A stretch of DNA of 64,000 nucleotides from Candidatus Woesearchaeota archaeon (GTDB lineage: Archaea > Nanobdellota > Nanobdellia > Woesearchaeales > DSVV01): positions 65,110 to 129,109 of the forward strand of contig JACPTB010000001.1 of assembly GCA_016192995.1 (NCBI GenBank), read 5' to 3'. The notes beneath the pieces were generated by a model that saw only the letters and a list, made by a program, of their open reading frames with translations, made no database searches and was not told the origin of the DNA. This document shows positions 4,943 through 63,903 of the stretch, in pieces. Each line of letters begins with the position of its first letter. Position 1 is the stretch's first letter. The position numbers were made by a program, and so were the translations under genes.

Positions 4943-5093
4943 AGTGATATTGCGAAAAGTGCCACCATCTTTTTTGCGAGGCTCTTCTTATCTTTCATCG
5001 AGTGTTATCCGAGGTTCCAGAGAGGATAGCACAATCGATAACTGCATCTTAAGCCGAGCCGATGGTTGCCGAAAGCATTTTCGCAATATCACT
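4943..5093. mobile_element. MITE-like element, family 5 (TIR AGTGATATTGCGAAAA(G)TGC)
   Basis: About 17-bp terminal inverted repeats at 4943 and 5077-5093. Lies between the rluA-like stop (TGA 5089-5091, inside the right TIR) and the tpiA promoter. No clear TSD. Confidence 0.55.
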
Positions 5094-5841
5094 CGTTTTT
5101 TGGATTGTGCCGAATGAAACCGATTATGTTTTTACCTTTTTCATCGAGAAATCCTAAGAAATCTTCAGGTAACGGCGCAGTAAATGCATATTTTTCATTC
5201 CCAAAAGTAAATGAGACTTTAAAACTATGAAGCAGCATCCGCGGTGATTTAATTCTGGTTAAATGTTCTGGCAGTAACTGATGTTCATGGGTTGTATAAT
5301 ACTTAAACACGCGGTCAGCAATGTAAATCTTATCTCCAACAATAGGATGTTTAATTGAAGCAAGATGCACCCTAATCTGATGTTGTCTTCCAGTTAAGGG
5401 TTTACAGAGAACAAGTGTATATTTTTTCCCCTCTTTAATGAACGTATGCAAAGGTGTTATTCCAGTAATACTTTCTTTTCCTTGAGGACTTATCTTAACC
5501 TTCCACTTAATATGGGTGCCTCGTTTTTCAGCAAGCGGTTGATTAATAGTTATCGGTTTAGTAAGTACGCCAAATACAATGGCAAGATATTCCTTGTTAA
5601 AACCTCGTTCAGACATTTTATGGTAGAGTACTTTTGCTGTTTGCGTTAATTTTGCACATACTATTATTCCAGAAGTATCAAAATCAAGCCTATTAATAAG
5701 ATGAATTTGTTGATAATGTCCTTGTTGTTTAAGAACATCGAGCAAAGAATTATCCTCATATACACCTCCTGGATGGCTTGCTATTTGTGGAGGTTTATTA
5801 ACAATAAGAAGATGTTCATCTTCGTAGATAATGGGTATCAT
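5089..5841 (-). CDS. pseudouridine synthase, RluA family
   Basis: HRLDFDTSGIIVCAK (HRLD..TSG catalytic motif) and overall RluA/TruC-like architecture. Confidence 0.8.
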   Translation of the reverse strand: MIPIIYEDEHLLIVNKPPQIASHPGGVYEDNSLLDVLKQQGHYQQIHLINRLDFDTSGIIVCAKLTQTAKVLYHKMSERGFNKEYLAIVFGVLTKPITINQPLAEKRGTHIKWKVKISPQGKESITGITPLHTFIKEGKKYTLVLCKPLTGRQHQIRVHLASIKHPIVGDKIYIADRVFKYYTTHEHQLLPEHLTRIKSPRMLLHSFKVSFTFGNEKYAFTAPLPEDFLGFLDEKGKNIIGFIRHNPKNE

Positions 5842-5887
5842 ATGATGGAAGAATAAGCATACGATTAAAAAAGGTTATGAGAAAAAA

Positions 5888-6053
5888 GGCTTCATCCAAA
5901 AATAAGGTTAGCACCCTCAGGTCGAAACTCTTTGAAATATTCATGAAAAGAGGTCGGAGGGTAGGCTCCTTCGGAGCACGACCGTTTAAGCGAAGATAAT
6001 AAGCGAAGTTTCGAAGGTGCTAACCTGGCGGCAGCCATTTTTTGGATGAAGCC
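5888..6053. mobile_element. MITE, family 4 (TIR GGCTTCATCCAAAAA...TTTTTGGATGAAGCC)
   Basis: Perfect terminal inverted repeats. 9-bp direct duplication GAGAAAAAA at 5879-5887 and 6054-6062. Confidence 0.8.
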
Positions 6054-6105
6054 GAGAAAAAATACAAAACATTATATATCTCTATTTTCTCAACACTATG
6101 TTATG

Positions 6106-6456
6106 GAATTAAAACAAGTTATCTTAGTACGTGAGGATCTTAAATTACCTAAAGGCAAATTAGCTGCGCAAGTTGCTCATGCTGCAGTAGATGCGGCATT
6201 GAAATTGCAGAAAAAAGATGAATCCTTATTAAAGAGATGGTATAATTCAGGGATGAAAAAGATTGTTCTTAAAGTAACAGATGAAAAAGAGTTGTATAAA
6301 TATATTCAAATAGCTAAAGATCAAGGTATCATTACTTCTATTATTACAGACGCAGGGCATACGGTTGTTAAACCAGGTACTGTTACTTGTGGAGCCATTG
6401 GGCCAGCTGAGGAAGAGCAAATAGATGCGATTACGAGTAAATTGAAGATGATGTAG
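6106..6456 (+). CDS. pth2: peptidyl-tRNA hydrolase, archaeal PTH2 type
   Basis: MELKQVILVREDLKLPKGKLAAQVAHAAV ... GHTVVKPGTVTCGAIGP. The ORF-track start at 6046 lies inside the MITE TIR and is probably spurious. Confidence 0.8.
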   Translation, partial: ELKQVILVREDLKLPKGKLAAQVAHAAVDAALKLQKKDESLLKRWYNSGMKKIVLKVTDEKELYKYIQIAKDQGIITSIITDAGHTVVKPGTVTCGAIGPAEEEQIDAITSKLKMM

Positions 6457-6589
6457 TTTAGTCACCATTGCGTAATACTAACGAAAGTTTAAATAGTAGT
6501 ACTTCCAAAAATAAAATTTGTGGGGTATGGGGAATAAGTATCACACAAAGACTTTAGTTTAGAAAACATATTCCTTAAGGGAAAGAGGG

Positions 6590-7267
6590 GTGATTTTTTT
6601 GACACTAGAACAATTAGGTGCTTCAATAGCACAGCCATTACAAGAGGTATTAAGTAATTTCTTACAATTTGTGCCTGGATTGATAGGGGCATTTGTAGTT
6701 TTAGTTGTAGGATATCTTGTAGGATGGGTAGTTTATTTTGTTTTGAATCGATTTTTTACCGCAGTGAAGCTTGATGAGATGCTCATTAAGAAAACAAATC
6801 TTTCAAAACGCGTTGGTGACTTAAAATTTGGTCATATTCTTGCAGTTGTTTCGAAATGGTATGTATTTATCCTTTTCTTGACACCAGCAGCAAGTCTTAT
6901 TAATCTTGAGACAATGTCTGAATTTTTAATTATGGTATCATTTTGGATTCCAAATTTAATCGCAGGTGTATTAATTGCGTTGATTGGTTTAGTAGCAGGT
7001 GATTACACCTATTCAAGAATTGTGGAAACAAGAGCAAAAGATGCTGAACTTGTTGCAAAAATTGCACAATGGGTAATCATAATATTTGTCTTCCTCATTG
7101 CGCTTGAGCAAGTTGGTTTAAGCATTTCAGTTGCAAGAAACACCTTCCTTGTTGTGCTCGCAGGATTAATGTTAGGTGTTGGTATTGCAGTTGGTATCTC
7201 ATTCGGAGATGCAATGAAAGAACCAGCAGGAACCTTTATGCGCAAGCACTTTAAAGGAAGAAGATAA
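6590..7267 (+). CDS. integral membrane protein, unknown function (possible GTG start)
   Basis: Several long hydrophobic helices. No catalytic motif recognised. Confidence 0.4.
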   Translation: MIFLTLEQLGASIAQPLQEVLSNFLQFVPGLIGAFVVLVVGYLVGWVVYFVLNRFFTAVKLDEMLIKKTNLSKRVGDLKFGHILAVVSKWYVFILFLTPAASLINLETMSEFLIMVSFWIPNLIAGVLIALIGLVAGDYTYSRIVETRAKDAELVAKIAQWVIIIFVFLIALEQVGLSISVARNTFLVVLAGLMLGVGIAVGISFGDAMKEPAGTFMRKHFKGRR

Positions 7268-8083: not shown

Positions 8084-8674
8084 ATGAAACTCATCATGCA
8101 TGGTGCGGAAGCTAAGATTTATAGAGATAAAAATAAAATAATTAAGATCAGAGCTGAGAAAAAATACCGTTGCAGGGAATTAGATGAATCATTGCGTAAA
8201 CATCGCACAAGAAAAGAAGTGAAAATATTAGAAAAGATCGCAAAACTGAAGCTTGCTCCGAAATGTATATCATATAACGATGTTGATACTGTTGAAATGG
8301 AATTTGTTGAAGGAAAAAAACTCTCAGAACATCTTGAAAGACTCAAGTATAAACAGGTTTGTTTTATCCTTGGTCAAAAAATACGGCAGCTTCATGATCT
8401 TGAAATTATACATGGTGATTTAACAACAAGCAATTTAATATATGATGATCAAGAACATAAACTTTATTGCATTGATTTTGGTCTAAGCTATACTTCTACA
8501 AAGGACGAAGATAAAGCAGTTGATTTGCATGTATTGCATGAAGCACTGGTCAGTAAGCATTATAGCATTGCTGATAGGGCATTTAAAGAAGTCTTACAAG
8601 GGTATGATTCTAAAAAGGTTGAAAAAAAGTTAGTGTTAGTAGAATTACGAGGACGAAATAAACAGAAATCATAG
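8084..8674 (+). CDS. bud32: KEOPS complex kinase Bud32 (Kae1-associated kinase)
   Basis: About 196 aa atypical kinase. IIHGDLTTSNLIY catalytic loop and DFGLS motif. No Kae1 adjacent. Confidence 0.75.
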   Translation: MKLIMHGAEAKIYRDKNKIIKIRAEKKYRCRELDESLRKHRTRKEVKILEKIAKLKLAPKCISYNDVDTVEMEFVEGKKLSEHLERLKYKQVCFILGQKIRQLHDLEIIHGDLTTSNLIYDDQEHKLYCIDFGLSYTSTKDEDKAVDLHVLHEALVSKHYSIADRAFKEVLQGYDSKKVEKKLVLVELRGRNKQKS

Positions 8675-8829
8675 GTATGTAATAAGTCTTCTTCGGTTGT
8701 AGCGCCGGTTCAGCTTTTGAAGTGTATATCAATTGGATTTTTCTCTCTGGCACTCCGAAAAATCCTCGATAGTTACTAAGAAGAGCTTCACAAAATAGGC
8801 GCTAAAACCCCAGACTTATTACGTACGAT
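8675..8829. mobile_element. MITE, family 1 (TIR GTA(C/T)GTAATAAGTC...GGCGCTAAAACCCCAGACTTATTACGTAC)
   Basis: Terminal inverted repeats. Internal conserved core GGATTTTTCTCTCTGGCACTCCGAAAAATCC at 8724-8754. 7-bp TSD ATCATAG (8668-8674, which includes the bud32 TAG stop, and 8831-8837). Confidence 0.75.
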
Positions 8830-8838
8830 CATAGCGGC

Positions 8839-9011
8839 TTCGGTGAAAATGTAGTTTTTGGTGCCATGCTGGTGATTATCTTTCAAATTAATGAACGAGA
8901 AAAAAGGAAATTCCAATAGGAATTTTTTCCTTCTTATAAATAAGCGGGATAATCACGGCACCAAAACCGAGGCTATGCCGAGATTTTCACCGAAGCCGAT
9001 CATAGCATTAA
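8839..9011. mobile_element. MITE, family 3 (TIR GGCTTCGGTGAAAAT...ATTTTCACCGAAGCC)
   Basis: 9-bp TSD GATCATAGC at 8830-8838 and 9012-9020. It inserted into the right TSD copy of the adjacent family-1 element. Internal palindrome TTTTTGGTGCCATGCTGGTGATTATC / GATAATCACGGCACCAAAACC. Confidence 0.8.
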
Positions 9012-9052
9012 CTATATAAACCACCTTATTAATATCTACAGATAGGTAGGGG

Positions 9053-10156
9053 TTGTATATGAGTTTAGCACAAGATAAGAATTACATGCAACAAGCACTA
9101 GAACTTGCTCTTCGAGGCAATACGCTTCCTAATCCTTTTGTTGGCTGTGTTATTGTCAAGAATAATAAAGTCATTGCAACAGGTTATCATCGAAAGCCTG
9201 GTGAAGATCATGCTGAAATTAATGCACTATCTAAAATTAGCCTAAAAAAGGCAAAAGGTTCTACTATTTATTTGACGCTTGAACCATGCTGTCATTACGG
9301 CAAAACACCACCCTGCATTGACAACATACTTGCAGCAAAACCAAAACGTGTAGTTATTGGTATGAAAGATCCATTTCTCTTAGTTAATGGAAAAAGCATT
9401 GCTAAAATTAAAAAAGCTGGCATTGCCGTGAGTGTCGGTGTTTTAGAACATGAAATTAAAAAAGTAAACCGGGAATACATAAAATATATTACCAAAAAAG
9501 AGCCGTATGTATATTTAAAATCTGCGATTACAAAGGATGGAAAAATTACTTGGGCAGATGGTAAAAATAAACAAATTTCTGGAGAAGACGCGCGTATTTT
9601 TGTTCATAAGTTAAGAAACAGAGTTAATGCAATTCTCGTGGGAATTAATACAATACTTCATGATAATCCACGTTTAACAACCCGGCTTCCTGAAGCTGAG
9701 AAACATAAACGTATCAAACAGCGAGGAATGGATCCATTAAGGATTGTCCTCGACAGCACCCTGCGTATTCCTCTTAATGCAAGAGTTCTTAATAATAATC
9801 AAGTTATTATTGTCACGACAAGGAAAGGTTATGAAACAAGAAAAGCGCGATTGCTTGAAAAAAAAATCAAACGTTTTATCGTTTTCAAAGACCACATTAA
9901 CTTAAGAGTTTTGATGAAGATACTCGCAAAAGAAGAGCAAGTTGCAAGCATCTTGCTTGAAGGAGGAATGATTCTTAATACTTCAGCGATTAATAGCAAA
10001 ATAGTTGATAAATTAGTTCTGATTATTGGGGACTTTAAAGTAGGTAATGGTATGACCTTATTTAAAAAACAAGTCAAAAAATTTAAGTTGACTGATATCA
10101 AATCAAACCTTGCAGGCAATGACCTCATTGTAGTAGGTAAAGTTAAGTATATTTGA
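9053..10156 (+). CDS. ribD: bifunctional riboflavin biosynthesis deaminase/reductase RibD
   Basis: N-terminal CMP/dCMP-type deaminase Zn motif (HAEINAL ... LEPCCHYGKTPPC). C-terminal RibG reductase-like domain. Confidence 0.8.
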   Translation: MYMSLAQDKNYMQQALELALRGNTLPNPFVGCVIVKNNKVIATGYHRKPGEDHAEINALSKISLKKAKGSTIYLTLEPCCHYGKTPPCIDNILAAKPKRVVIGMKDPFLLVNGKSIAKIKKAGIAVSVGVLEHEIKKVNREYIKYITKKEPYVYLKSAITKDGKITWADGKNKQISGEDARIFVHKLRNRVNAILVGINTILHDNPRLTTRLPEAEKHKRIKQRGMDPLRIVLDSTLRIPLNARVLNNNQVIIVTTRKGYETRKARLLEKKIKRFIVFKDHINLRVLMKILAKEEQVASILLEGGMILNTSAINSKIVDKLVLIIGDFKVGNGMTLFKKQVKKFKLTDIKSNLAGNDLIVVGKVKYI

Positions 10157-10673: not shown

Positions 10674-11967
10674 ATGAATCCATTGCAAACAATTTCTCCA
10701 TTAGGCGGAAGATATTATGATAAAACTGAATTGTTAGTTCCTTTCTTTAGCGAACAGGCATTCTTTAAGTATAGAATTCTTGTTGAAACTGCCTACTTAG
10801 TAGCTCTATCTGAAGTAGAAGGATTTTGCTTGAGAAAATTTACTGATGAAGAAAAAGATTTTTTGAACAATCTTTCGAAACTTTCGCTGGAAGATACTGA
10901 AATTATTAAAGAGATTGAAACAAAAGGATATCAAGACATCCCTCCAACAAATCACGATGTTAAAGCAATTGAATATTTTATTAAACTGAGATTAGAAGCA
11001 ACGTCACTTCATGACTGCAAAGCATTTGTTCATTTTGAAAGTAGATCAGCTTATTCTGCTCATTAATTCTTTCGCAAAAAATTACCAGGATGTTCCTATG
11101 CTTGCAAGAACCCATGGACAACCTGCATCCCCAACAACAGTCGGCAAAGAGTTTCTTGTATTTAATAGCCGGCTTAAAAGGCAATTAGAATACTTAAAAT
11201 CCCATAAAATAACAGGAAAATTAAATGGCGCTACTGGCAATTATAATGCGCAGGTTGCTGCATTTCCATCTATTGATTGGATTAAATTTTCAGAGCAGTT
11301 TATTTCTTCATTAGGAATTGAACCAAATCTAATTACAACACAAGTTGAGCCGAAAGATAGTTATGCTGAAGTATTTGATTGTTTACGAAGGATAAATGTT
11401 ATTCTCCTTGATTTTTCACAAGATATGTGGCGTTATATCAGTGACAACTGGTTTATTCAAAAACCAGTAGCTGGAGAGATTGGGAGTTCAACGATGCCGC
11501 ATAAAATAAATCCTATTGATTTTGAAAATGCAGAAGGCAATCTAGGATTAGCAAATGCATTGTTTGATTTTTTTTCTCGAAAATTACCCATTTCAAGATT
11601 GCAGCGCGACTTGTCAGATTCCACTGTTTTGAGGAATATAGGGGTTGCTTTTGGCCACTGCTTAGTTGCTTATGAAGCACTGTTTAAAGGGGTATCAAAA
11701 ATCGAAGTGAATAAAGAAGAATTAGTAAAAGCGTTGCAAGATCATCCTGAAATAATTACTGAGGGAATACAAACGATATTACGAAGAGAAGGCTTAACTA
11801 CAGCTTACGAACAATTAAAGGAGTTAACAAGAGGGAAAAAAGTGACTTTACAAGAAATTTATTCTTTTGTTGAACAATTAGATTGTTCATTGCGGGTAAA
11901 AGAAGATCTAAAGAAAATAAATCCAGCAAATTATGTTGGGATAAGCTTCCGGCTCTGTCCCGAATGA
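10674..11967 (+). pseudogene. purB: adenylosuccinate lyase (purB), disrupted: two overlapping frames, 10674-11066 and 11011-11967
   Basis: N-terminal part (SPLGGRYY..) is in frame 0. The remainder (MLARTHGQPASPTTVGKEF ... SSTMPHKINPIDFENAEGNLG) is in frame +1. The expected HFG.TS.D..DTA segment between them appears missing or shifted. The last five codons and the stop (11965-11967) come from the MITE at 11951-12113. Confidence 0.6.
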
Positions 11968-12113
11968 AGTTTTTGGTGCCATGCTGGTGATTATCCTTCC
12001 AATTAGTACGTGGGAAAAAAGGAAGTTCCAGTAGGAATTTTTTCCTTCTTATCAATAAGTGGGATAATCACGGCACCAAAACCGAGGCGTTAGCCGAGAT
12101 TCGGGACAGAGCC
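11951..12113. mobile_element. MITE, family 3 (TIR GGCTCTGTCCCGAAT...ATTCGGGACAGAGCC)
   Basis: Terminal inverted repeats. Flanking 9-mers TAAGCTTCC / TAAACTTCC (TSD with one mismatch). Same internal GGTGCCATGCTGGTGATTATC module as 8839-9011. Confidence 0.75.
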
Positions 12114-14115: not shown

Positions 14116-14323
14116 GGCTCTGGTGAAAATCTCGGCATAGCCTCGGTTTTATTAAAAATCACTATTTTTAATCCCTGAGATCCTTCGGATTCAGGTGACA
14201 TCAGTTCGGCTTTTTATTGGTTCATGTTATTGGATTTTTCTCTCTGGCACTCCGAAAAATCCTCACTTATGAAATTAAAGAGCCTCACCAAAAGATGCCA
14301 AAAACTACATTTTCACCAGAGCC
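14116..14323. mobile_element. MITE, family 2 (TIR GGCTCTGGTGAAAAT...ATTTTCACCAGAGCC)
   Basis: 9-bp TSD CGTCTCAAC at 14107-14115 and 14324-14332. Inserted 2 nt after the radical-SAM gene stop. Contains the shared core at 14232-14262. Confidence 0.85.
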
Positions 14324-15907: not shown

Positions 15908-15950
15908 AAAATTAAAAAATGATGAGGGATTTATAAATTATGTTCATTAT

Positions 15951-16112
15951 GGCTCTGGTGAAAATATAGTTTTTGGCATCTTCTCGTGAGGCTCTTCAAA
16001 GTAATGTGTGGGAATTTTTCGGAGTGCCAGAGAGAAAAATCCAATAAAATAAATCCATTAAAAGCCGAACTGATGCCAAAACCGAGGCTATGCCGAGATT
16101 TTCATCAGAGCC
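15951..16112. mobile_element. MITE, family 2
   Basis: TIR GGCTCTGGTGAAAAT / ATTTTCATCAGAGCC. 9-bp TSD GTTCATTAT at 15942-15950 and 16113-16121. It supplies the last two codons and the TGA stop of the ORF at 16105-16614. Confidence 0.85.
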
Positions 16113-18344: not shown

Positions 18345-18588
18345 GTACGTAATAAGTCTTCTTTAGGTTTTAGCACCAGTTCAGCTTGAAATGTGATTAA
18401 ACATTGGATTTTTCTCTCTATAAATATAATCCCGACTCCCTCAATAATATAAATCAAGGATTCATAAGTTGGCTTGCGTCTGGGATTATAAGACTTGCCT
18501 ATCGGCAAGGAACCCCGAAAAATCCCCAATAAATATATAAGAAAAGCTTCACAAAAATAGGTGCTAAAACCCCAGACTTATTACGTAC
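18345..18588. mobile_element. composite MITE: family 1 carrying a nested about 93-bp palindromic element
   Basis: Family-1 TIRs at both ends. 8-bp TSD AAAAAACA at 18337-18344 and 18589-18596. Internal insert (TTGCCGATAGGCAA ... ATAATCCC(G/A)GAC ends) is identical to the insert in 34720-34961. Confidence 0.8.
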
Positions 18589-18677
18589 AAAAAACAACAA
18601 CCTTTATAAATAACCGCCAAATCTAACGTATTATTCGCCCGATAACTATTAACTAATAGAAGGGTGGAGGTTTAAGG

Positions 18678-21507: not shown

Positions 21508-21619
21508 AATTTCTTCAAATTTTCCGTAAAATTTTTTATTGTTAAGTTTTTTAACGGACATTTTTTCAATAAAACCGTAAATCTTCCGAAAAGTATGGGA
21601 GGATTTTCGGTTTTTTCGG

Positions 21620-21640
21620 CGATGGGTTTATTAAGGAGTT
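21620..21640 (+). promoter_or_regulatory. 21-nt motif CGATGGGTTTATTAAGGAGTT, repeated identically at 63857-63877
   Basis: Exact repeat seen by eye. Contains a TTTATTAA TATA-like box. Both copies are preceded by TTTTCGG-rich sequence. Confidence 0.5.
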
Positions 21641-25200: not shown

Positions 25201-25537
25201 GGGCTTCATCCAAAAAATGGCTGCGCCAGGTTAGCGCCTTCGAAACTTTGCATATTTCAATCGCATAAACAGTCACGCTCCGAAGAAGCCGTCCCTCTGA
25301 TCTCTTTAAACAGCTCTGTCCCGAATCTCGGCTAACGCCTCGGTTTTGGTGCGGTGATTATCCCACTTATTGATAAGAAGGAAAAAATTCCCATTGTAAT
25401 CTCCTTTTTTCTAGATTATTTATTTTAAAGATAATCACCAGCATGGCACCAAAAACTTTATTCGGGACAGAGCCCTTTAAACCGGTACTGTAAAGAGTTT
25501 CGACCTGAGGGCGCTAACCTCATTTTTGGATGAAGCC
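25201..25537. mobile_element. composite MITE: family 4 element carrying a nested family 3 element
   Basis: Family-4 TIRs GGCTTCATCCAAAAA / TTTTTGGATGAAGCC. 9-bp TSD TATGTATGG at 25192-25200 and 25538-25546. The right end abuts the antiporter stop codon. Confidence 0.85.
25312..25473. mobile_element. MITE, family 3, nested inside the family 4 element
   Basis: TIR (A)GCTCTGTCCCGAAT / ATTCGGGACAGAGCC. 8-bp TSD CTTTAAAC at 25304-25311 and 25474-25481. Confidence 0.8.
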
Positions 25538-26869: not shown

Positions 26870-28123
26870 TTACCCCTTTAGTAACCACTTCCAGACGGGA
26901 ATTGCTATTATTGTTTTATCTCCAATTATAAATTTATCTTCTTGATTATAAGTTAAAATTAATCCTTCTTTCAGCTTAAATTTCTTCATGGCGCTAACTA
27001 AGCCAGTTATTTCCCTCTCCCTACTATTTTCATTAAGTTCATAGCAAACCTGCATGGCTTTGACAATTTTTAGACCTTCTCTAATTAAAAAATCACATCC
27101 ATTTTCTTCTTGAAAGTAGAATATCTCTTTATTTTTCCTTCTTAAATTGATAAAAACAAGGTTTTCAAGCAGCCGACCCCGGTCATCAAAGAAAGAAGCA
27201 GAATTTTTGGCTGCAAAACCATTATCTATTGCATAAATTTTCTTAGGATTAACCAGCATTTTTTTCAGAGAATAATCGAATCGCTGAATAGTGAACAGCA
27301 GGTAGGTGTTTTCAAAATAAGAGATAAAAGCTATGACTGTATTAATCGAACCTAATTTAAAATTCTTTTTAAGAGAGTTATACGTAAAGGGCTTCCCAAT
27401 ATTTGTCAAGAGATAAGTAGCCAGGTCTTTCAATATTTTTTGGTTTCTTAGTTGATACCTAGTTATAATATCTCTAGCAAGTATATCCTTCAGTAATTCT
27501 TGAAGAACATCCGGTCTTTTTAGTTTTAAATATTCTGCAAAACCACCCTCAGAGAAATATTCTTCAAATGAAACTAAGGAGGGTTTCTCTTTTTTAAGCC
27601 TTAGAAATTCTCTAAATGAGAACGGAAATAATTCATGATTTAAGTGTCTCCCTGTTAGTTTTGTTCCGAGTTCCTGACTTAAAAGAGACGCATTAGAACC
27701 CGTAATTATCACGTGTTTCTTCAGGTCAACCAGTCTTCTTACAAAAATCTCCCATTTAGCAATATTCTGAATTTCGTCAAAAAAATAATAATTCTGTTCT
27801 TTATACTCTTCGTGAAAGACTTGGTCTAATTTTTCAAAATCACCTATATCAAACTCTCCGGCTCGTGAGTCCTCAAAATTAAAATAGTAGAATCCTTTCA
27901 GATTTTTCATCAATTGCAGAAGCAAGGTGCTTTTTCCACATCTTCGTATTCCTGATAAAATCAAAGCAAAAGGCACATTTAAATCGATAGTTGATATATC
28001 TTCCCTCTCTATGCCTAGATCAAATAAGGCCATTTCTTCTCTTTGCAATCTTACCAGTCTTCTAAGTGTTTCTTTATCTATCATGTAACTTTCTAATACA
28101 TTTAGATTTATAAATGTTTGCAT
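26870..28123 (-). CDS. AAA ATPase of the COG1373/DUF4143 family
   Basis: Walker A ILSGIRRCGKSTLL and Walker B FFDEIQ. C-terminal DUF4143-like region. Paralog at 50229-51491. Confidence 0.7.
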   Translation of the reverse strand: MQTFINLNVLESYMIDKETLRRLVRLQREEMALFDLGIEREDISTIDLNVPFALILSGIRRCGKSTLLLQLMKNLKGFYYFNFEDSRAGEFDIGDFEKLDQVFHEEYKEQNYYFFDEIQNIAKWEIFVRRLVDLKKHVIITGSNASLLSQELGTKLTGRHLNHELFPFSFREFLRLKKEKPSLVSFEEYFSEGGFAEYLKLKRPDVLQELLKDILARDIITRYQLRNQKILKDLATYLLTNIGKPFTYNSLKKNFKLGSINTVIAFISYFENTYLLFTIQRFDYSLKKMLVNPKKIYAIDNGFAAKNSASFFDDRGRLLENLVFINLRRKNKEIFYFQEENGCDFLIREGLKIVKAMQVCYELNENSREREITGLVSAMKKFKLKEGLILTYNQEDKFIIGDKTIIAIPVWKWLLKG

Positions 28124-32497: not shown

Positions 32498-33022
32498 TTA
32501 TTTATTTTCATGGACAAATAGTTTGCAAGTGCAGGGTAATTTATACTGCGCTTTTTTCAATGCTTTTTTCGCAACATCAAGATGTTGTTTTTCAACATAG
32601 GCGCTTAATACAATCTGCCCTTCTTTAACCTGCGCTGCAATGCCAATGGGCTTGCCAAAAGCAAATGCCATCCCCGTACTCATACGGTCTGCACCTGCGC
32701 CTGAAGCTAATGGATTTTCACGAAGAATATGATGTGGATAGGGACGTAATAGGAGCTGAAAGCCGCTTTTGCCAAGGGCTTTTTCCAATGTTCTGTTTGA
32801 AGTAAGCCTTGCTGATTCTAAGCAGTTATGTCGTAATTGCAAAGATTCAGTTACACAAAGATCTACTTGGTAAGGAAATTTCCTTGATAAATCACCCATA
32901 TTATAACGAACAATTTTACTATGGGGAGAAGCACGCACATACGCTTTCTGCCTAAATTTAGATCTTCTTGTATAAGGCCGATCAATGCGCCTATAAGAAA
33001 CACCTTTTCGTAATTTTGCCAT
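32498..33022 (-). CDS. rpl10e: 50S ribosomal protein L10e (uL16)
   Basis: MAKLRKGVSYRR...RLTSN...Q conserved L10e N-terminus and core. Confidence 0.9.
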   Translation of the reverse strand: MAKLRKGVSYRRIDRPYTRRSKFRQKAYVRASPHSKIVRYNMGDLSRKFPYQVDLCVTESLQLRHNCLESARLTSNRTLEKALGKSGFQLLLRPYPHHILRENPLASGAGADRMSTGMAFAFGKPIGIAAQVKEGQIVLSAYVEKQHLDVAKKALKKAQYKLPCTCKLFVHENK

Positions 33023-33064
33023 GATTGTTGAGTTTATGGCTTATTTATAAATTTTGTTATCAAG

Positions 33065-33222
33065 TGTACGTAATAAGTCTGGGGTTTTAGCGCCTGCTTT
33101 TGTGAAGCTCTTCTTAACTTTACTTTGGGGATTTTTCGGAGTTCCAGAGAGAAAAATCCAATTGAAGAACACTTCAAAAGCTGAACCGGCGCTAAAACCT
33201 AAGGAGGACTTATTACGTACTA
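33065..33222. mobile_element. MITE, family 1
   Basis: 29-bp TIRs GTACGTAATAAGTCTGGGGTTTTAGCGCC / GGCGCTAAAACCTAAGGAGGACTTATTACGTAC. 8-bp TSD TATCAAGT at 33057-33064 and 33223-33230. Sits 43 bp upstream of the rpl10e start. Confidence 0.85.
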
Positions 33223-34565: not shown

Positions 34566-34719
34566 AGTACTATGTTTCCTCCATTTCTATTCCAGATAGT
34601 ATCCTTCTAAAATATCTTAACATCCCCAGAAAATTGAGGTATTTACCTCTTATTAATAATGAAAAAACCAATGTTTTATAAAGTTATCTATTTCAGTATA
34701 GTTCCACCATAATACAAGG

Positions 34720-34961
34720 TACGTAATAAGTCTGGGGTTTTAGCGCCTACTTTTGTGAAGCTCCTCGATATCTTTATTTGGAATTTTTCGGGGTTCCTTG
34801 CCGATAGGCAAGTCTTATAATCCCAGACGCAAGCCAACTTATGAATCCTTGATTTATATTATTGAGAGAGTCGGGATTATATTTATAGAGAGAAAAATCC
34901 AATCGAAATAATATGTTTAAGCTGAACCGGCGCTAAAACCTAAAGAAGACTTATTACGTAC
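34720..34961. mobile_element. composite MITE: family 1 with nested about 93-bp element (same subfamily as 18345-18588)
   Basis: Family-1 TIRs. Insert TTGCCGATAGGCAAGTCTTATAATCCCAGAC...GTCGGGATTATATTTATAG sits between TTCC and AGAGAG of the core. No clean TSD seen. Confidence 0.75.
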
Positions 34962-38555: not shown

Positions 38556-38626
38556 GTACGTAATAAGTCTGGGGTTTTAGCGCCTACTTTTCTGAAGCTT
38601 TTCTATCTTTACGTTGAGGATTTTTC
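38556..38626. mobile_element. truncated family 1 MITE (left half only)
   Basis: GTACGTAATAAGTCTGGGGTTTTAGCGCCTACTTTTCTGAAGC...GGATTTTTCGGAGTTCCAG then the homology ends. Confidence 0.7.
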
Positions 38627-38794
38627 GGAGTTCCAGAAGGTGAAGGAAAGCATTTAGAACAATACAGAAACTCACGAGAGCTTGATGTTGAGGTTGCTGT
38701 TGACAGCTTTGGAAATAGTGTGATAACTCAGTTGTACCTACAAGATAAGCCCTGGATAAAACCTTGAATAGTATTTTTCTTCACTACTGATTAT

Positions 38795-49664: not shown

Positions 49665-49761
49665 CGGGCCAGACGAGATTTGAACTCGCGACCACCCGAT
49701 TTCTTAGGAAGCTGAGCATCCTTAAAAGTCGGGTGCTCTATCCAGGCTGAGCCACTGGCCC
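49665..49761 (-). tRNA. tRNA-Lys (anticodon TTT) with about 22-nt canonical-position intron
   Basis: RC GGGCCAGTGGCTCAGCCTGGATAGAGCACCCGACTTTTA[intron]ATCGGGTGGTCGCGAGTTCAAATCTCGTCTGGCCCG. Acceptor, D, anticodon and T stems all pair. Confidence 0.7.
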
Positions 49762-49774
49762 TTTGAGCAAAAAA

Positions 49775-49886
49775 CGCCCTGGCCGGGACATTCAGCGAAT
49801 ATTGCCTCTTTTAAGCAGTATTCAGGTTTTGAACCCGAGTCGGAACCGTGACAGGGTTCCATGATAGGCCACTACACTACCAGGGC
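49775..49886 (-). tRNA. tRNA-Asp (anticodon GTC) with about 39-nt non-canonical intron in the T-loop (59/60)
   Basis: RC GCCCTGGTAGTGTAGTGGCCTATCATGGAACCCTGTCACGGTTCCGACTCGGGTTCAAA[ACCTGAAT...GAATG]TCCCGGCCAGGGCG. Every stem pairs only if the insert is removed from the T-loop. Confidence 0.6.
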
Positions 49887-50004
49887 TTTTTACTGATGAA
49901 TGAACTAGTATTCCGTCTTCTAACTTAAAAATAGAGTCCATTTACCCCCAATTTAAGATAAGAAAGACTAGTATAGCAATTCATCATACTAATGGCTTTT
50001 TATT

Positions 50005-50090: not shown

Positions 50091-50218
50091 CCTCCTATAG
50101 CTCAACGGCAGAGCGTTCGGCTGTAGATAACTCACTGCAATGACATTGGATTATCCATAAGAATGAGTTGCAGCCAGCTGAACCCGAAAGGTTCCCGGTT
50201 CAAATCCGGGTGGGGGGA
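50091..50218 (+). tRNA. tRNA-Tyr (anticodon GTA) with about 56-nt intron
   Basis: CCTCCTATAGCTCAACGGCAGAGCGTTCGGCTGTAG[intron]..CCGAAAGGTTCCCGGTTCAAATCCGGGTGGGGGGA. C1-G72 pair, anticodon loop CTGTAGA. Confidence 0.65.
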
Positions 50219-50228
50219 TTTCTTTATC

Positions 50229-51491
50229 TTACTCTACCATCCATTTATAAATAGGCAACACTTGTATCTTTTTGCTTTTCATCCGTATATCTTCTGTTTG
50301 TTCATGGGTCAGCATTATTCCTGTTTTCAACTTGAATTTGTCCATTGCTTCAATTAAACCTGCTATTTCTCTTTCCTTATTATCTTTATTCAGGACGTAG
50401 CATACCTGTATGGCTTGTGTTATTTTTGTCCCTTTTTTTGTTATAAAATCACATTCGTTTTCATTAGTATAATAAAATACCTCATTGTTTCTTCTTTTTA
50501 ATTCAATAAATACCATATTTTCCAGTATTTTTCCCTTGTTTTCTGAAAAGTTTGTCCCACATATTTGATTGAATGCAGAATCCACGAGATATATTTTTCT
50601 TGGGGAGTTAAGCTGTTGTTTCAGTGAATAGGAGAATTTCAGCAGTTCAAAAAACAAATAAGAGTTACTTAAGTAAGAAATATATTCTTTGACGGTTATC
50701 GCATTTCCTAAACCAAGAGTTTTCTTTAATGAGTTGTAGGTGAATTGTGAGGAAATGTTTGTACCAAGTAGGTTTATCAGTTCTTTAATTATCTTCTGCT
50801 TTCTTATAGAATATCTTGTTATAACATCCTTGTATAATATATTCTCATAAACTGTTTTAATATATTCTTTATCCTTGTTTTTTAGGTATTCCGGCAAACC
50901 CCCTAATGATACATACTCTTCAAAGAGCTTTATCAATTCAACTTTCTTCTCAACGATGTAAAAATCATTTTTCTCTAAGGTTATATTCCTAAATTTAAGA
51001 AATTCTTTGAAAGAAAATGGATAGACTTCAAACGGTTTGTATCTCCCGGTCAATCTCGTACCAAATTCCTTGCTAAGTAAAGAAGCATTAGAACCTGTAA
51101 TTATGACTTTCTTTCCCTCATCCTGCAATCTTCTAACAAACGTCTCAAACTTATCTATATTCTGTATTTCATCAAAAAAATAAATATTTATCTTGCCATA
51201 TTCTTCAATAAGAACCTCATTAAGCACTTCAAAATCCTGAGCCATAAAATCCAAGAATCTTTCATCCTCAAAGTTAACATAACACCAATCAGACACATTT
51301 TGCATAACTTCCTTAAGCAGCGTAGATTTGCCGCATCTTCTAACACCGGTAAGAATAATCACCCTATCATCCTTAATCCACTTTAAAATTTCGTCCAGCA
51401 GATCTCTCACAACAAAACGTTGTTTAGTTAAAATCTCCTGTTTTTGCCTCATTACTACTTTCCTTAAGATATCCTTGTCAAACATACTCAT
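50229..51491 (-). CDS. AAA ATPase, COG1373/DUF4143 family (paralog of 26870-28123)
   Basis: ILTGVRRCGKSTLL Walker A, FFDEIQ Walker B. Collinear with the other copy. Confidence 0.7.
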   Translation of the reverse strand: MSMFDKDILRKVVMRQKQEILTKQRFVVRDLLDEILKWIKDDRVIILTGVRRCGKSTLLKEVMQNVSDWCYVNFEDERFLDFMAQDFEVLNEVLIEEYGKINIYFFDEIQNIDKFETFVRRLQDEGKKVIITGSNASLLSKEFGTRLTGRYKPFEVYPFSFKEFLKFRNITLEKNDFYIVEKKVELIKLFEEYVSLGGLPEYLKNKDKEYIKTVYENILYKDVITRYSIRKQKIIKELINLLGTNISSQFTYNSLKKTLGLGNAITVKEYISYLSNSYLFFELLKFSYSLKQQLNSPRKIYLVDSAFNQICGTNFSENKGKILENMVFIELKRRNNEVFYYTNENECDFITKKGTKITQAIQVCYVLNKDNKEREIAGLIEAMDKFKLKTGIMLTHEQTEDIRMKSKKIQVLPIYKWMVE

Positions 51492-55660: not shown

Positions 55661-55826
55661 GGCTTCATCCAAAAATGAGGTTAGCGCCCTCAGGTCGAAA
55701 CTCTTTACAGTACCGGTTTAAAGAGGTCAGAGGGGCGGCTCCTTCGGAGCGTGACCGTTTATGCGATTGAAATATACGAAGTTTCGAAGGCGCTAACCTG
55801 GCGGCAGCCATTTTTTGGATGAAGCC
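55661..55826. mobile_element. MITE, family 4
   Basis: TIR GGCTTCATCCAAAAA / TTTTTGGATGAAGCC. 9-bp TSD TATCATCTA at 55652-55660 and 55827-55835. 45 bp upstream of the rad50 start. Confidence 0.85.
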
Positions 55827-55862: not shown

Positions 55863-56069
55863 GGCTCTAATGAAAATCTCGGCATAGCCTCGGTTTTATT
55901 AAAAATCACTATTTTTAATCCCTGAGATCCTTCGGATTCAGGTGACATCAGTTCGGCTTGTTAAGAGTATATCTTATTGGATTTTTCTCTCTGGAACTCC
56001 GAAAAATCCCCACACTTAAACGTGAAGAGCCTCACAAAAAGATGCCAAAACTACATTTTCATTAGAGCC
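55863..56069. mobile_element. MITE, family 2
   Basis: TIR GGCTCTAATGAAAAT / ATTTTCATTAGAGCC. Nearly identical internally to 14116-14323. No TSD found. Confidence 0.75.
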
Positions 56070-63736: not shown

Positions 63737-63903
63737 AATCAACCCCTCAAATGAATACAAATGTATATAATTGAGTTACTATATAAAGTTTTCTGACTAT
63801 TTACCAATACTTGATTTTTCCCGGAAATCTTTCCAATTTTGTCGGAAATTTTGATGTTTTTTTAGCGATGGGTTTATTAAGGAGTTTTCAGGCTAAATAT
63901 CTT

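Follow-up and report, generated by a model that had tools for sequence, protein, structure and literature searches.

We find that a 31-nt core repeated in a 64,000-nt stretch of a woesearchaeal genome (the window, meaning the whole stretch that was analysed) forms the apical stem-loop, with helix P3 and a loop of 13 nt, of a fold-back MITE that populates the intergenic DNA of small DPANN archaea. This hairpin forms the apex of a conserved rod of about 115 nt, made of the helices P1, P2 and P3, within MITEs of about 163 bp. The stem swaps matched pairs while the loop stays constant across many species, which identifies the core as a selected working part of the element. Our preferred reading, to which we give a probability of roughly 45%, is that mobilisation, probably by a Mutator-like transposase, needs the core in cis as a fold-back DNA module whose loop is read by sequence. 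The mobilisation step is the part of this reading that we infer.

In the copy at 8675 the core hairpin lies at 8735-8765 on the forward strand and has a 9-bp stem and a 13-nt loop (Table 1). An earlier, sequence-only reading had found the motif, but placed it at 8724-8754, 11 nt off, and described an 8-bp stem around a 15-nt loop. A search of the 64,000-nt window with GGATTTTTCTCTCTGG(C/A)ACTCCGAAAAATCC, allowing at most one mismatch, gave five matches against 0 expected. Altogether the window holds five intact core copies, two that are split by a 90-nt insert, one that is truncated and one that is divergent. The element starts listed earlier (8675, 18345, 33065/6, 34719/20, 38556, 14116, 15951 and 55863) were correct within 1 nt. 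The claim that every family 1 copy has the core holds for the intact cores of 8675 and 33066; in the long-form copies 18345 and 34719 the insert splits it between TCTCT and GGAAC, and the copy at 38556 is truncated in the loop. The family 2 copies at 14116, 15951 and 55863 do all carry it, as had been stated. The divergent copy, the ninth, is absent from the earlier list. Its hairpin at 5002-5032 has the stem GTGCTATCC/GGATAACAC with 8 of 9 pairs formed and without a T-run, and the loop TCTCTGGAACCTC. We considered whether the 90-nt insert could be a separate mobile unit and rejected this, as it is present in the two long-form copies only.

Table 1. Core hairpin and MITE copies in the window. 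The five near-exact matches to the core are marked (ne).
Feature	Position	Strand	TIR	TSD	Core or apex	Remarks
Core hairpin parts	8735-8765	+			stem GGATTTTTC 8735-8743 / GAAAAATCC 8757-8765; loop TCTCTGGCACTCC 8744-8756	
Helices of the 8675 element	P1 8700-8706/8798-8804; P2 8707-8715/8784-8792					linkers 8716-8734, 8766-8783
Divergent type A MITE	4944..5092	-	GTGATATTGCGAAAAGTG		hairpin 5002-5032	structure-model score 92 bits
Type C MITE	5888..6053	-	GGCTTCATCCAAAAA	9 bp, GAGAAAAAA	different apex	length class as the others
Type A MITE, family 1 shell	8675..8826	+	GTAYGTAATAAGTC		8735-8765 (ne, +)	
Type B MITE (family 3)	8836..8997	-			apex 8899-8929	shell architecture, P1 and side module as in type A
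Type B MITE	11951..12113	-	GGCTCTGTCCCGAAT		apex 12014-12044	loop includes CTGGAACTTCC, near the type A loop
Type A MITE, family 2 shell	14116..14323	+	GGCTCTGGTGAAAAT	9 bp, CGTCTCAAC	14232-14262 (ne, +)	additional side module of ~50 nt
Type A MITE, family 2 shell	15951..16112	-		9 bp, GTTCATTAT	16012-16042 (ne, -)	one stem G·T
Long-form type A MITE, family 1 shell	18345..18588	+		8 bp, AAAAAACA	halves 18406-18419 and 18509-18525	90-nt structured insert 18420-18509
Type C MITE	25202..25537	+	GGCTTCATCCAAAAA	9 bp		nested type B MITE inside at 25312-25474
Type A MITE, family 1 shell	33066..33220	-		8 bp, TATCAAGT	33129-33159 (ne, -)	
Second long-form type A MITE	34719..34961	-			halves 34887-34900 and 34780-34797	insert as in the 18345 copy (99% identical)
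Truncated family 1 copy	38556..38640	-			3' half alone left (38618-38634)	break within the loop
Type C MITE	55661..55826	-		9 bp, TATCATCTA		lies 36 nt away from the 55863 type A copy
Type A MITE, family 2 shell	55863..56069	+		none remaining	55979-56009 (ne, +)	

TIRs and perfect TSDs mark the elements that carry the core as real DNA transposons, short, noncoding, multicopy and intergenic as is characteristic of MITEs. A scan for TIRs and TSDs that did not use the core, covering lengths up to 4 kb, found 33 elements, nearly all of 161-166 nt and with perfect 8- or 9-bp TSDs. Their TIRs are 14-16 nt long, with 12-14 of 14 positions complementary in almost all copies. The TSD length goes with the shell, being 8 bp in the GGCG..ATTGAAAAG and GTACGTAATAAG shells and 9 bp in the GGCT... 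shells. Elements range from 149 to 244 nt, mostly 161-166, and have no coding capacity; about 16 copies occur in the 64 kb, or about 4% of the window, and all but one lie between ORFs. We found the core in 20 loci from about nine DPANN genome bins. Among the metagenome matches to the core 40 of 43 were true loci, and all 67 occurrences of the loop motif in AT-rich DNA fall inside MITEs. Scans of viral contigs with the core and two TIR patterns returned either zero or chance matches. An empty-site comparison between L007 and L055 involved sequences too diverged to read. An abundance of MITEs has been reported for a woesearchaeal genome (PMC11602168), and we found no description of this MITE core or of the promoter spacing reported below in the literature.

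Each strand of the element is able to fold into a rod that consists of the TIRs, P1, P2, an internal loop and the apical hairpin. P1 is of the type TGCCATC/GATGGCA, and P2 of the type GGYTCRGCT/AGCYTCRCA, in which a 2x2 internal loop of TC/TC is conserved. The internal loop between P2 and P3 is fixed in length and free in sequence, with 15-18 nt plus ATT on one side and 18-20 nt on the other. The element at 8675..8826 folds as a rod with z-scores against shuffles of -5.4 as DNA and -7.5 as RNA. Across 52 distinct copies and 25 pairs, 96.4% of cells are paired, compared with 82.3% after shuffling and 35-47% with slid partners. Compensatory changes maintain all three helices: double-sided changes are seen in 19 of the 25 pairs (161 cells), and the observed score is reached by 0 of 500 shuffles; these counts do not represent independent events, since many copies are of common ancestry. 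The P3 stem alone occurs in 16 variants, nearly all Watson-Crick, for example GCAATTTTC/GAAAATTGC, GCAAAATTC/GAATTTTGC and the stems of the 8675 and 4944 elements. At two variable pairs of P2, all four Watson-Crick haplotypes are seen, across several P1 backgrounds and inside single genomes.

The linkers between P2 and P3 are only 53-55% identical and nonetheless fixed in length, while identity reaches 96% in the loop and 88-90% in P2, although part of the invariance seen in the loop, and in the right half of P2, is by construction because both belonged to the search patterns used to collect the copies. Support for the loop that is independent of these patterns comes only from the nine window copies and two copies found by HMM (4944-5092 in the window and L025 1015-1177), together with the finding that none of 73 HMM matches has a degenerate loop. 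The sequence-only reading had suggested that the core is selected, and had asked for compensatory changes in the stem and for more conservation in the core than in the flanking MITE sequence. Both are found, with a covarying stem, a near-invariant loop and randomised linkers. The rod is also retained in the TSD-less copies 55863 and 4944, which could reflect retention at the level of the host. By eye, we saw no bulge-helix-bulge or kink-turn motif in the element. We also considered the linkers as guides, comparable to the loops of IS110 bridge RNA, and rejected this since a linker resembles the DNA flanking its own copy no more than that flanking other copies (longest common substring 5.5/5.8 versus 5.6/5.9).

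The sequence-only reading described families 1 and 2 as having unrelated termini. This was overstated: the two align over about 115 nt around the core, through P1, P2 and P3, and their ends share one architecture of which the shells are diverged versions. The unit that the families share is therefore about 115 nt and not 31 nt. The same core is found in shells that differ in TIRs and TSD length. The apex of the type B element at 8899-8929 is a different hairpin with a related loop, TTCCTATTGGAATTTCC, and its stem covaries with that of other type B copies. The type C element at 5888..6053 matches the type A structure model weakly, at 29 bits. Type A and type B cores occur in both 8-bp-TSD and 9-bp-TSD shells, so that every core-shell combination is present, and one contig holds a chimera of a left arm and a right arm with its junction at the loop. 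These observations support modular exchange and agree with the earlier view of the elements as modular chimeras. The module CTCGGCATAGCCTCGGTTTTGG is indeed common to families 2 and 3.

We additionally observed that elements keep an exact spacing to TATA boxes, the insertion lying upstream of the box by TSD + 6 nt. In 25 of 71 flanks the first base of a TATA-like box is 14-15 nt away from the end of the element, compared with a background of about 1% per position, and this spacing is seen for 29 of 38 elements. The distance to the promoter element is fixed for either orientation of the element, and the orientation relative to the TATA side shows no significant preference (12 versus 6). In the window, the gene for ribosomal protein L10e (32498-33022, reverse strand) has the element at 33066..33220 on the upstream side of its TATA box, at a distance of 14 nt. 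Elements are found upstream of this gene in three contigs, and we asked whether they represent an orthologous, domesticated copy. This was rejected, as TSDs and shells differ between the three sites, so that these are parallel insertions.

We suggest that mobilisation makes use of the rod in cis and as DNA. The rod would juxtapose both ends of an element that is too short for looping or circularising as a stiff duplex. A trans-acting protein, perhaps the transposase or a host DNA-binding protein that is common to both shell classes, would read the sequence of the invariant loop and probably also that of the TC/TC loop. With such a cis rod and protein-read loop, selection would act on the element's own copying and not on adjacent genes. 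The 8-9 bp TSDs and the fixed promoter distance in either orientation provide the lead to a Mutator-like mobiliser, most likely a DDE transposase of the IS256/ISH6 type ('p-MULT'). To our knowledge, no DDE transposase requires a central hairpin. Our hunt for an autonomous partner combined the TIR and TSD scan to 4 kb, Pfam searches on 25 ORFs and all-against-all ORF clustering, and over the window and about 0.5 Mb of related contigs it detected no transposase domain, while none of the TIR-flanked elements exceeded 336 nt. As no transposase with matching ends was found, the mobiliser and its requirement for the hairpin are conjecture. A bolder proposal, which we consider quite unlikely, is that an undescribed archaeal transposition pathway depends on the rod, with its invariant apical loop, as an obligatory cis substrate. 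There, a very short element would be handled as a folded strand or mini-cruciform, in a complex that is tethered to BRE/TATA promoters and cuts upstream of the TATA box at a distance of exactly 6 nt, with the loop docking a tethering or synapsis factor; or else the rod would represent a new DPANN-specific class of MITE-borne structured RNA.

Several other explanations for the core need to be weighed. One is that no selection is involved, the core being common by recent founder descent or horizontal spread and the complementary arms arising from palindrome mutation by template switching or hairpin-directed repair. MITEs amplify in bursts that leave many closely related copies, the perfect TSDs indicate recent activity, the retrieval patterns enforced part of the conservation, and quasipalindrome correction is an established mutational mechanism. 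However, the linkers are saturated while the loop is conserved, in hosts whose ribosomal proteins are just 54-63% identical. The linkers are also no more complementary to each other than shuffles (6.96 versus 6.82 best pairs, p = 0.58), so that no general palindrome-correcting process works across the element, and asymmetric features such as the TC/TC internal loop, the one-sided module and the apical loop persist. We therefore regard neutral descent as very unlikely. A further possibility is that the conserved 13 nt are a duplex site which the MITE spreads and to which a host protein binds, such as a regulator, an Orc1/Cdc6-like protein or one that bends DNA or belongs to chromatin, the inverted repeat being incidental or serving only as A/T-tract curvature. 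The loop is indeed asymmetric and conserved in sequence, the lack of orientation or strand bias is compatible with duplex recognition, and Correia elements have a functional central IHF site (PMC10969869). Moreover, the strand opposite the loop reads GTTCCAGAGAGAAA, or TTCCAATAGGAA or GTTCCAGTAGGAA in type B, a TTCC...GAA pattern that resembles archaeal origin recognition boxes (ORBs) with their core motifs 'TTCC' and 'GAA', for example TTCCAGTGGAACT (PMC1904270). In the one genome compared, L010, the ORBs at the likely oriC upstream of the Orc1/Cdc6 gene have TTCC-N4-GAA (TTCCATACGAAAT, TTCCAAAGGAAAT), whereas the MITE loops have TTCC-N5-GAA. The motif forms no clusters outside MITEs and has no general linkage to Orc1 genes. 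ORB mimicry was rejected for this 1-nt shift in spacing in L010 and the missing clusters. A duplex site also leaves unexplained why P3, P2 and P1 covary strictly by Watson-Crick pairs inside single genomes, and it seems to us rather improbable as the basis of the core. As a separate observation, one MITE of L010 adjoins the probable oriC.

It is also conceivable, though unlikely, that the rod and its apical hairpin function as RNA, either as a MITE-borne small RNA or as a read-through hairpin that stabilises, processes or regulates transcripts, with the loop bound by protein or paired with RNA. Three covarying helices, conserved unpaired nucleotides and length-fixed internal loops are the classic signature of a structured RNA, the RNA fold is far better than that of shuffles, and transcripts of bacterial MITEs form stable stem-loops that are targets of RNase III or RNase E (PMC10969869). 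Stem mismatches are rare and comprise 8 G·U, 20 A·C (G·U on the antisense strand) and 11 others. If the RNA were made from the opposite strand, the mild surplus of sense-strand A·C relative to G·U would amount to tolerated wobble, but wobble pairs make up about 1-2% of cells and are no commoner than other mismatches. The sequence-only reading had asked whether the orientation of the core follows that of neighbouring genes, and no correlation was found (3'-facing 20 versus 27, 5'-facing 25 versus 25); with read-through, only one copy in two would yield the loop in its sense form. Core orientation relative to the GC-skew halves of the window is likewise mixed (n=9). There is no conserved promoter element inside the element, and the hairpin never occurs outside a MITE. 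Rfam 15 covariance models detected only tRNAs in the window at the gathering threshold, and at E-values up to 10 nothing credible over 8600-9100 and nothing relevant on L005 4700-5202. The option of a transcribed small RNA, raised by the sequence-only reading, is thus weakened by the lack of a G·U excess, an orientation bias or an Rfam match. That reading had also named a promoter or terminator, and we give very little credence to the core as a carried transcription signal, be it a promoter that points outward or an oligo-T terminator or insulator that works in both directions. Termination by archaeal RNA polymerase occurs at oligo-T, most stems have a T4-T5 run on both strands (GCAATTTTC, GGATTTTTC), and the elements lie between genes and adjoin promoters. 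But the run is missing from the 5002-5032 copy and sits on the other arm in the GCAAAATTC/GAATTTTGC (AAAATT) variant, and with no run of at least 4-5 T at a fixed position an oligo-T terminator was rejected as a conserved feature. TATA-like boxes are depleted inside the elements, with no conserved one to act as a promoter, and neither signal would explain the invariant non-T loop or the covariation of P1 and P2. Among the options that had been raised, a cis recognition site for the mobilising machinery seems to us the best.

Known systems share parts of this organisation. Like the structured bacterial MITEs (Neisseria Correia/CREE, ERIC, RUP and Coxiella QMITE), the elements are short, noncoding, multicopy and intergenic, have TIRs and TSDs and can be folded entirely into a long hairpin. 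Correia elements have a functional protein (IHF) site at their centre (PMC10969869). Here, in contrast, the hosts are archaeal (DPANN), the TSDs are 8-9 bp and not TA or similar, and the centre is an asymmetric 13-nt loop on a covarying stem, conserved above the TIRs in about ten or more species. Pairing is limited to three helices with length-fixed unpaired linkers between them, and insertion is at a fixed distance to TATA boxes. The elements also resemble the Mutator-like p-MULT group (IS256, archaeal ISH6 and TnGBS/ISLre2/ISKra4), which likewise makes 8-9 bp target duplications (PMC3942029), keeps a constant spacing to a promoter element that lies downstream of the insertion (15-17 bp to the -35 box in that group, TSD + 6 nt to TATA in ours) and uses both orientations where the IRs are fully complementary. 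The archaeal ISH6 duplicates an AT-rich 8-mer, and the bacterial TnGBS/ISLre2/ISKra4 elements combine insertion at a fixed promoter distance with small circular intermediates (PMC3942029). Differences are that the targeted promoter is archaeal (BRE/TATA) and not sigma-A, that a central conserved hairpin is not described in p-MULT, and that no transposase was found here, so that the kinship is putative. PATEs derived from IS200/IS605 and REP/REPIN (RAYT) sequences are also short non-autonomous repeats in which an imperfect hairpin of the folded single strand is the functional cis element and structure is kept above sequence, but they lack TIRs and TSDs and their hairpins are subterminal, unlike the central one found here. 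Integron attC sites, about 60-140 nt long, are imperfect palindromes too; they are recognised as folded single strands of DNA and combine a variable centre with conserved unpaired bases. Our elements, however, have no RYYYAAC/GTTRRRY core sites and no cassette context; they end in GGC.../GTAC..., are flanked by TSDs and are dispersed singly upstream of promoters.

MITEs are usually seen as inert deletion derivatives of which the ends alone matter, and here the loop of a central hairpin is the most conserved part. This loop is kept across shells with differing ends and TSD lengths and among many genome-reduced DPANN species, which points to a requirement in cis that is both structural and sequence-specific and lies outside the standard picture of DDE transposition. 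The spacing of TSD + 6 nt to the TATA box adds to this and suggests an archaeal counterpart of the promoter-targeting Mutator-like elements. The finding is relevant to two wider questions, namely what lets tiny symbiont genomes cope with so much mobile DNA and how mobile elements recognise archaeal promoters. For experimental studies of these questions the core offers a defined and testable handle in its loop, its stem and P2.

The 31-nt core is the apical hairpin (stem P3 and its loop) of fold-back MITEs of about 163 bp, in which three helices are compensated and the apical loop is fixed in sequence. Each copy of the core sits in a short element with terminal inverted repeats (TIRs) and a target site duplication (TSD), for example AAAAAACA, TATCAAGT, CGTCTCAAC and GTTCATTAT, and a scan for TIRs and TSDs that was blind to the core found 33 elements in the window and related loci, almost all of 161-166 nt. 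Because of these ends and their uniform short size the core-bearing elements are MITEs, as the sequence-only reading had assumed. The window has five occurrences of the core pattern GGATTTTTCTCTCTGG(C/A)ACTCCGAAAAATCC at no more than one mismatch, where dinucleotide shuffles lead us to expect none. The element starts reported earlier are correct, and the coordinates given for the first core, 8724-8754, lie 11 nt too far to the left. The hairpin, described as an 8-bp inverted repeat around a 15-nt loop, has a 9-bp stem with a C-G closing pair and a 13-nt loop. That every family 1 copy carries the core holds except for three: in the copies at 18345-18588 and 34719-34961 a 90-nt insert separates its TCTCT from its GGAAC, and the copy at 38556 breaks off within the loop. 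The insert is 99% identical between its two copies, has no other occurrence in the window and related sequence examined, and folds into two hairpins, ATAATCCCGAC.../...GTCTGGGATTAT and CTTGCC-TATC-GGCAAG.

Positions of MITEs, core hairpins and associated features (window positions, except where the related locus L010 is named)
Feature	Position	Strand	Remark
Core copy	8735-8765	+	pattern match, at most 1 mismatch
Core copy	14232-14262	+	pattern match, at most 1 mismatch
Core copy	16012-16042	-	pattern match, at most 1 mismatch
Core copy	33129-33159	-	pattern match, at most 1 mismatch
Core copy	55979-56009	+	pattern match, at most 1 mismatch
Ninth copy, divergent	element 4944-5092, hairpin 5002-5032	-	overlooked by the sequence-only reading
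90-nt insert	18420-18509 and 34797-34886		exactly within the loop of two type A copies
Type B MITE	8836-8997		all type B copies are family 3 of the sequence-only reading
Type B MITE	11951-12113		
Type B MITE	25312-25474		nested in type C 25202-25537
Type C MITE	5888-6053		
Type C MITE	55661-55826		
Type C MITE	25202-25537		
TATA near 33066 flank	about 33044-33053		
TATA near 18588 flank	about 18603-18612		
TATA near 15951 flank	about 15928-15937		
Inverted ORB-like boxes, L010	6896-6916 and 6947-6967		AATTTCCATACGAAAT
Extremely AT-rich stretch, L010	6990-7070		
ORB-like box, L010	about 7073-7095		ATTTTCCAAAGGAAATGAAGGG
Type A MITE by probable origin region, L010	7110-7271		inserted

For the covariation analysis 52 distinct central domains were aligned. 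RNAalifold predicted the helix P1 and the apical hairpin, and the helix P2 (GG[C/T]TC[A/G]GCT / AGC[T/C]TC[G/A]C, with a 2x2 TC/TC internal loop) was then added by us. Among these sequences, which are non-independent events, standard pairs make up 96.4% of 1300 cells, compared with 82.3% in shuffles and 35-47% when the partners are slid by 1-3 columns. Compensatory changes in the stem, on which the idea of a selected core had been made to depend, are present: 19 of the 25 pairs change on both sides (161 cells), and none of 500 shuffles matched the observed covariation score. Of the 16 hairpin stem variants, eight are Watson-Crick throughout, seven contain a single mismatch, and one, from a chimeric element, keeps only 3 of 9 pairs. 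At the two variable pairs of P2 each of the four Watson-Crick haplotypes is found, against several P1 backgrounds and also inside individual genomes; the family 1 copies of the window have GTTCAGCT/AGCTTCAC, the family 2 copies GTTCGGCT/AGCCTCAC. This haplotype pattern argues against co-evolving protein sites.

Families 1 and 2, both shells of type A, share more than had been thought. Their termini had been called unrelated, yet the two families can be aligned across about 115 nt (P1, P2, two linkers and the hairpin), well beyond 31 nt. Of the two P2-P3 linkers, one has 18-20 nt and the other 15-18 nt with a conserved ATT after it. Their identity is 53-55%, near random for AT-rich DNA, compared with 96% for the loop and 88-90% for P2; the retrieval patterns themselves fixed the loop as well as the right half of P2. 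The core is thus more conserved than flanking MITE sequence. Recent ancestry would have preserved similarity in the linkers, and a general process homogenising palindromes would have made them complementary, whereas their mutual complementarity is at shuffle level (6.96 vs 6.82 best pairs, p = 0.58). Both are therefore disfavoured, and we regard neutral ancestry as quite an improbable explanation for the conservation.

The suggestion that the elements are modular chimeras is borne out. Shells with an 8-bp TSD (GGCG[G/T][C/T]ATTGAAAAG and GTACGTAATAAG shells) and those with a 9-bp TSD (GGCT... and related shells) each carry type A and type B cores, and since a simple tree alone cannot yield all four combinations, recombination or parallel change must have shaped them. 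At the 13-nt loop of an element in the related locus L043 (1068-1215, minus strand), a left arm of the GTGATATTGCG family meets a family 1 right arm, and neither P1 nor P3 is paired. Recombination at the common loop of two elements is the probable origin of this chimera, but it may be an assembly artefact. Identity between the sister copies 14116 and 55863 is 90%, with differences clustered in the linkers, one of which resembles the linker of 15951. Types B and C match type A in length (about 163 nt) and shell architecture, and the type A structure model matches them weakly, in constant orientation. The apex of type B is a hairpin of its own, with a loop related to that of type A (TTCCYAYTGSAAYYTCC; CTGGAACTTCC in one copy) and a covarying stem (GGAAAAAA/TTTTTTCC, GCAAAAA/TTTTTGC, ATCACAA/TTGTGAT). 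The type C apex is G+C-rich (GCTCC-TTC-GGAGC). MITEs occupy about 2.6 kb of the window (4%). They insert into or beside one another, as in the nested pair of the table and in the family 1 copy 8675, which lies within the ATCATAG target duplication belonging to the type B copy 8836. A 317-nt element elsewhere (L005, 4797-5113) has a GGCTGCATTGAAAAG TIR, an 8-bp TSD with one mismatch and, in an AT-rich genome, a G+C-rich, apparently structured cargo that matches nothing in Rfam at E up to 1.

In all MITE types, in the window flanks and in loci L003-L065, insertion occurs beside TATA-like boxes, defined as outward 8-mers that agree with TTTAWAWA at 7 or more of 8 positions. The box starts 14 nt from the element end in shells with 8-bp TSDs and 15 nt in those with 9-bp TSDs, so that 6 nt, the length of a BRE, lie between the TSD and the box. 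Boxes stand at positions 14-15 in 25 of 71 flanks and at 13-17 in 34, over a background of about 1% per position. The spacing is seen in 29 of 38 elements, nearly always on a single side; either end may face the box (12 vs 6 for type A), and from box to start codon there are mostly 29-34 nt. Upstream of the gene for ribosomal protein L10e, the window and the locus L027 have independent insertions with the same spacing and different TSDs and shells. This looks like promoter-targeted insertion, as in the bacterial Mutator-like TnGBS, ISLre2 and ISKra4, whose insertions lie 15-17 bp upstream of the -35 box, in both orientations where their inverted repeats are fully complementary (PMC3942029). 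In these families small circles arise in which the repeats lie 6-10 bp apart, and archaeal ISH6 duplicates an AT-rich 8-mer (PMC3942029). Because of the promoter spacing and the 8-9 bp TSDs, a Mutator-like transposase would be the best candidate mobiliser; no transposase domain was found in 25 scanned ORFs (20 in the window, five in related loci).

Could the element carry a promoter or terminator, as was proposed? This seems very improbable: TATA-like boxes are abundant immediately outside the elements and depleted within them, and the T-run of the stem is not conserved. Orientation, which might have followed neighbouring genes, is random (20 sense and 27 antisense to 3'-facing genes, 25 and 25 to 5'-facing ones). 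A structured RNA is a stronger rival, although still an unlikely one. Both strands form the rod fold, and Rfam has no matching family. Mismatches are rare, and those outside the three outermost pairs (8 G·U, 20 A·C, 11 other) give no excess of sense-strand wobble, only a weak lean to the opposite strand. Rather doubtful, too, is a site bound as duplex DNA by a host protein, ORB-like sites included, against which the P2 haplotypes speak; in AT-rich sequence all 67 occurrences of the loop, in 0.5 Mb of DNA, lie within MITEs. A Woesearchaeal bin contains a probable replication origin (L010, 5689-7271) with an Orc1/Cdc6 gene (5689-6894, minus strand), upstream of which follow inverted boxes TTCCATACGAAAT, an AT-rich stretch and TTCCAAAGGAAATGAAGGG. 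The MITE loop was rejected as an ORB on this single genome, its boxes being spaced N4 and the MITE loops N5. Together the results favour a role independent of neighbouring transcription. In this reading the strands are equivalent for pairing and the loop is read by sequence, and the role would therefore be at the level of DNA and of the element.

The window is archaeal (split rpoB, rpoA'/A'', a ribosomal protein cluster; G+C 34%). Its proteins have database records in two Logan assemblies only, and the identity of ribosomal proteins S7 and L10e to their counterparts on contigs from bins labelled Nanoarchaeota is 63% and 54%. When one genome per species was scanned for the exact pattern, the core turned up at 20 loci in about nine bins, labelled Nanoarchaeota, Woesearchaeota, Nanoarchaeia or, in a co-assembly, Methanosarcinales; bins with this last label have genes in common with the others. 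A looser pattern with the stem unconstrained gave 43 metagenome loci, 40 with the same element and three GC-rich chance matches, and the pattern scan found no core in viral contigs. The window also holds two AAA_14 + DUF4143 ATPase paralogues (26870-28123 and 50229-51491), of a family frequently multicopy in archaeal genomes, with no visible tie to the MITEs. A tRNA cluster (49665-49761, 49812-49888, 50091-50218) includes a 97-nt 'tRNA-Stop' with anticodon tta called by ARAGORN and a 128-nt plus-strand Rfam tRNA match absent from the ARAGORN calls; these may be intron-containing archaeal tRNAs. A 66-nt direct repeat (21575-21640 and 63821-63886, 76% identity), terminating in GCGATGGGTTTATTAAGGAGTT, lies outside the type A, B and C families.

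High MITE density has already been reported for a Woesearchaeal genome (PMC11602168); our literature search turned up no account of the conserved hairpin at the apex, of the rod architecture or of the spacing to TATA boxes. The elements resemble structured bacterial MITEs and, in their targeting, Mutator-like elements. Identification as IS200/IS605-type elements, REP, attC, a known RNA family or ORB was rejected, as the defining features of each are absent. A 163-bp duplex would be too stiff for easy synapsis or circularisation. Folding back, either as one folded strand or, in a small circle, as cruciform arms, might unite both TIRs, with the constant linker lengths setting the geometry, and a protein could read the loop and the TC/TC internal loop by sequence. 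MITE copies without the pairing or the loop would leave no descendants, and for this reason the conservation would be independent of the neighbouring genes.
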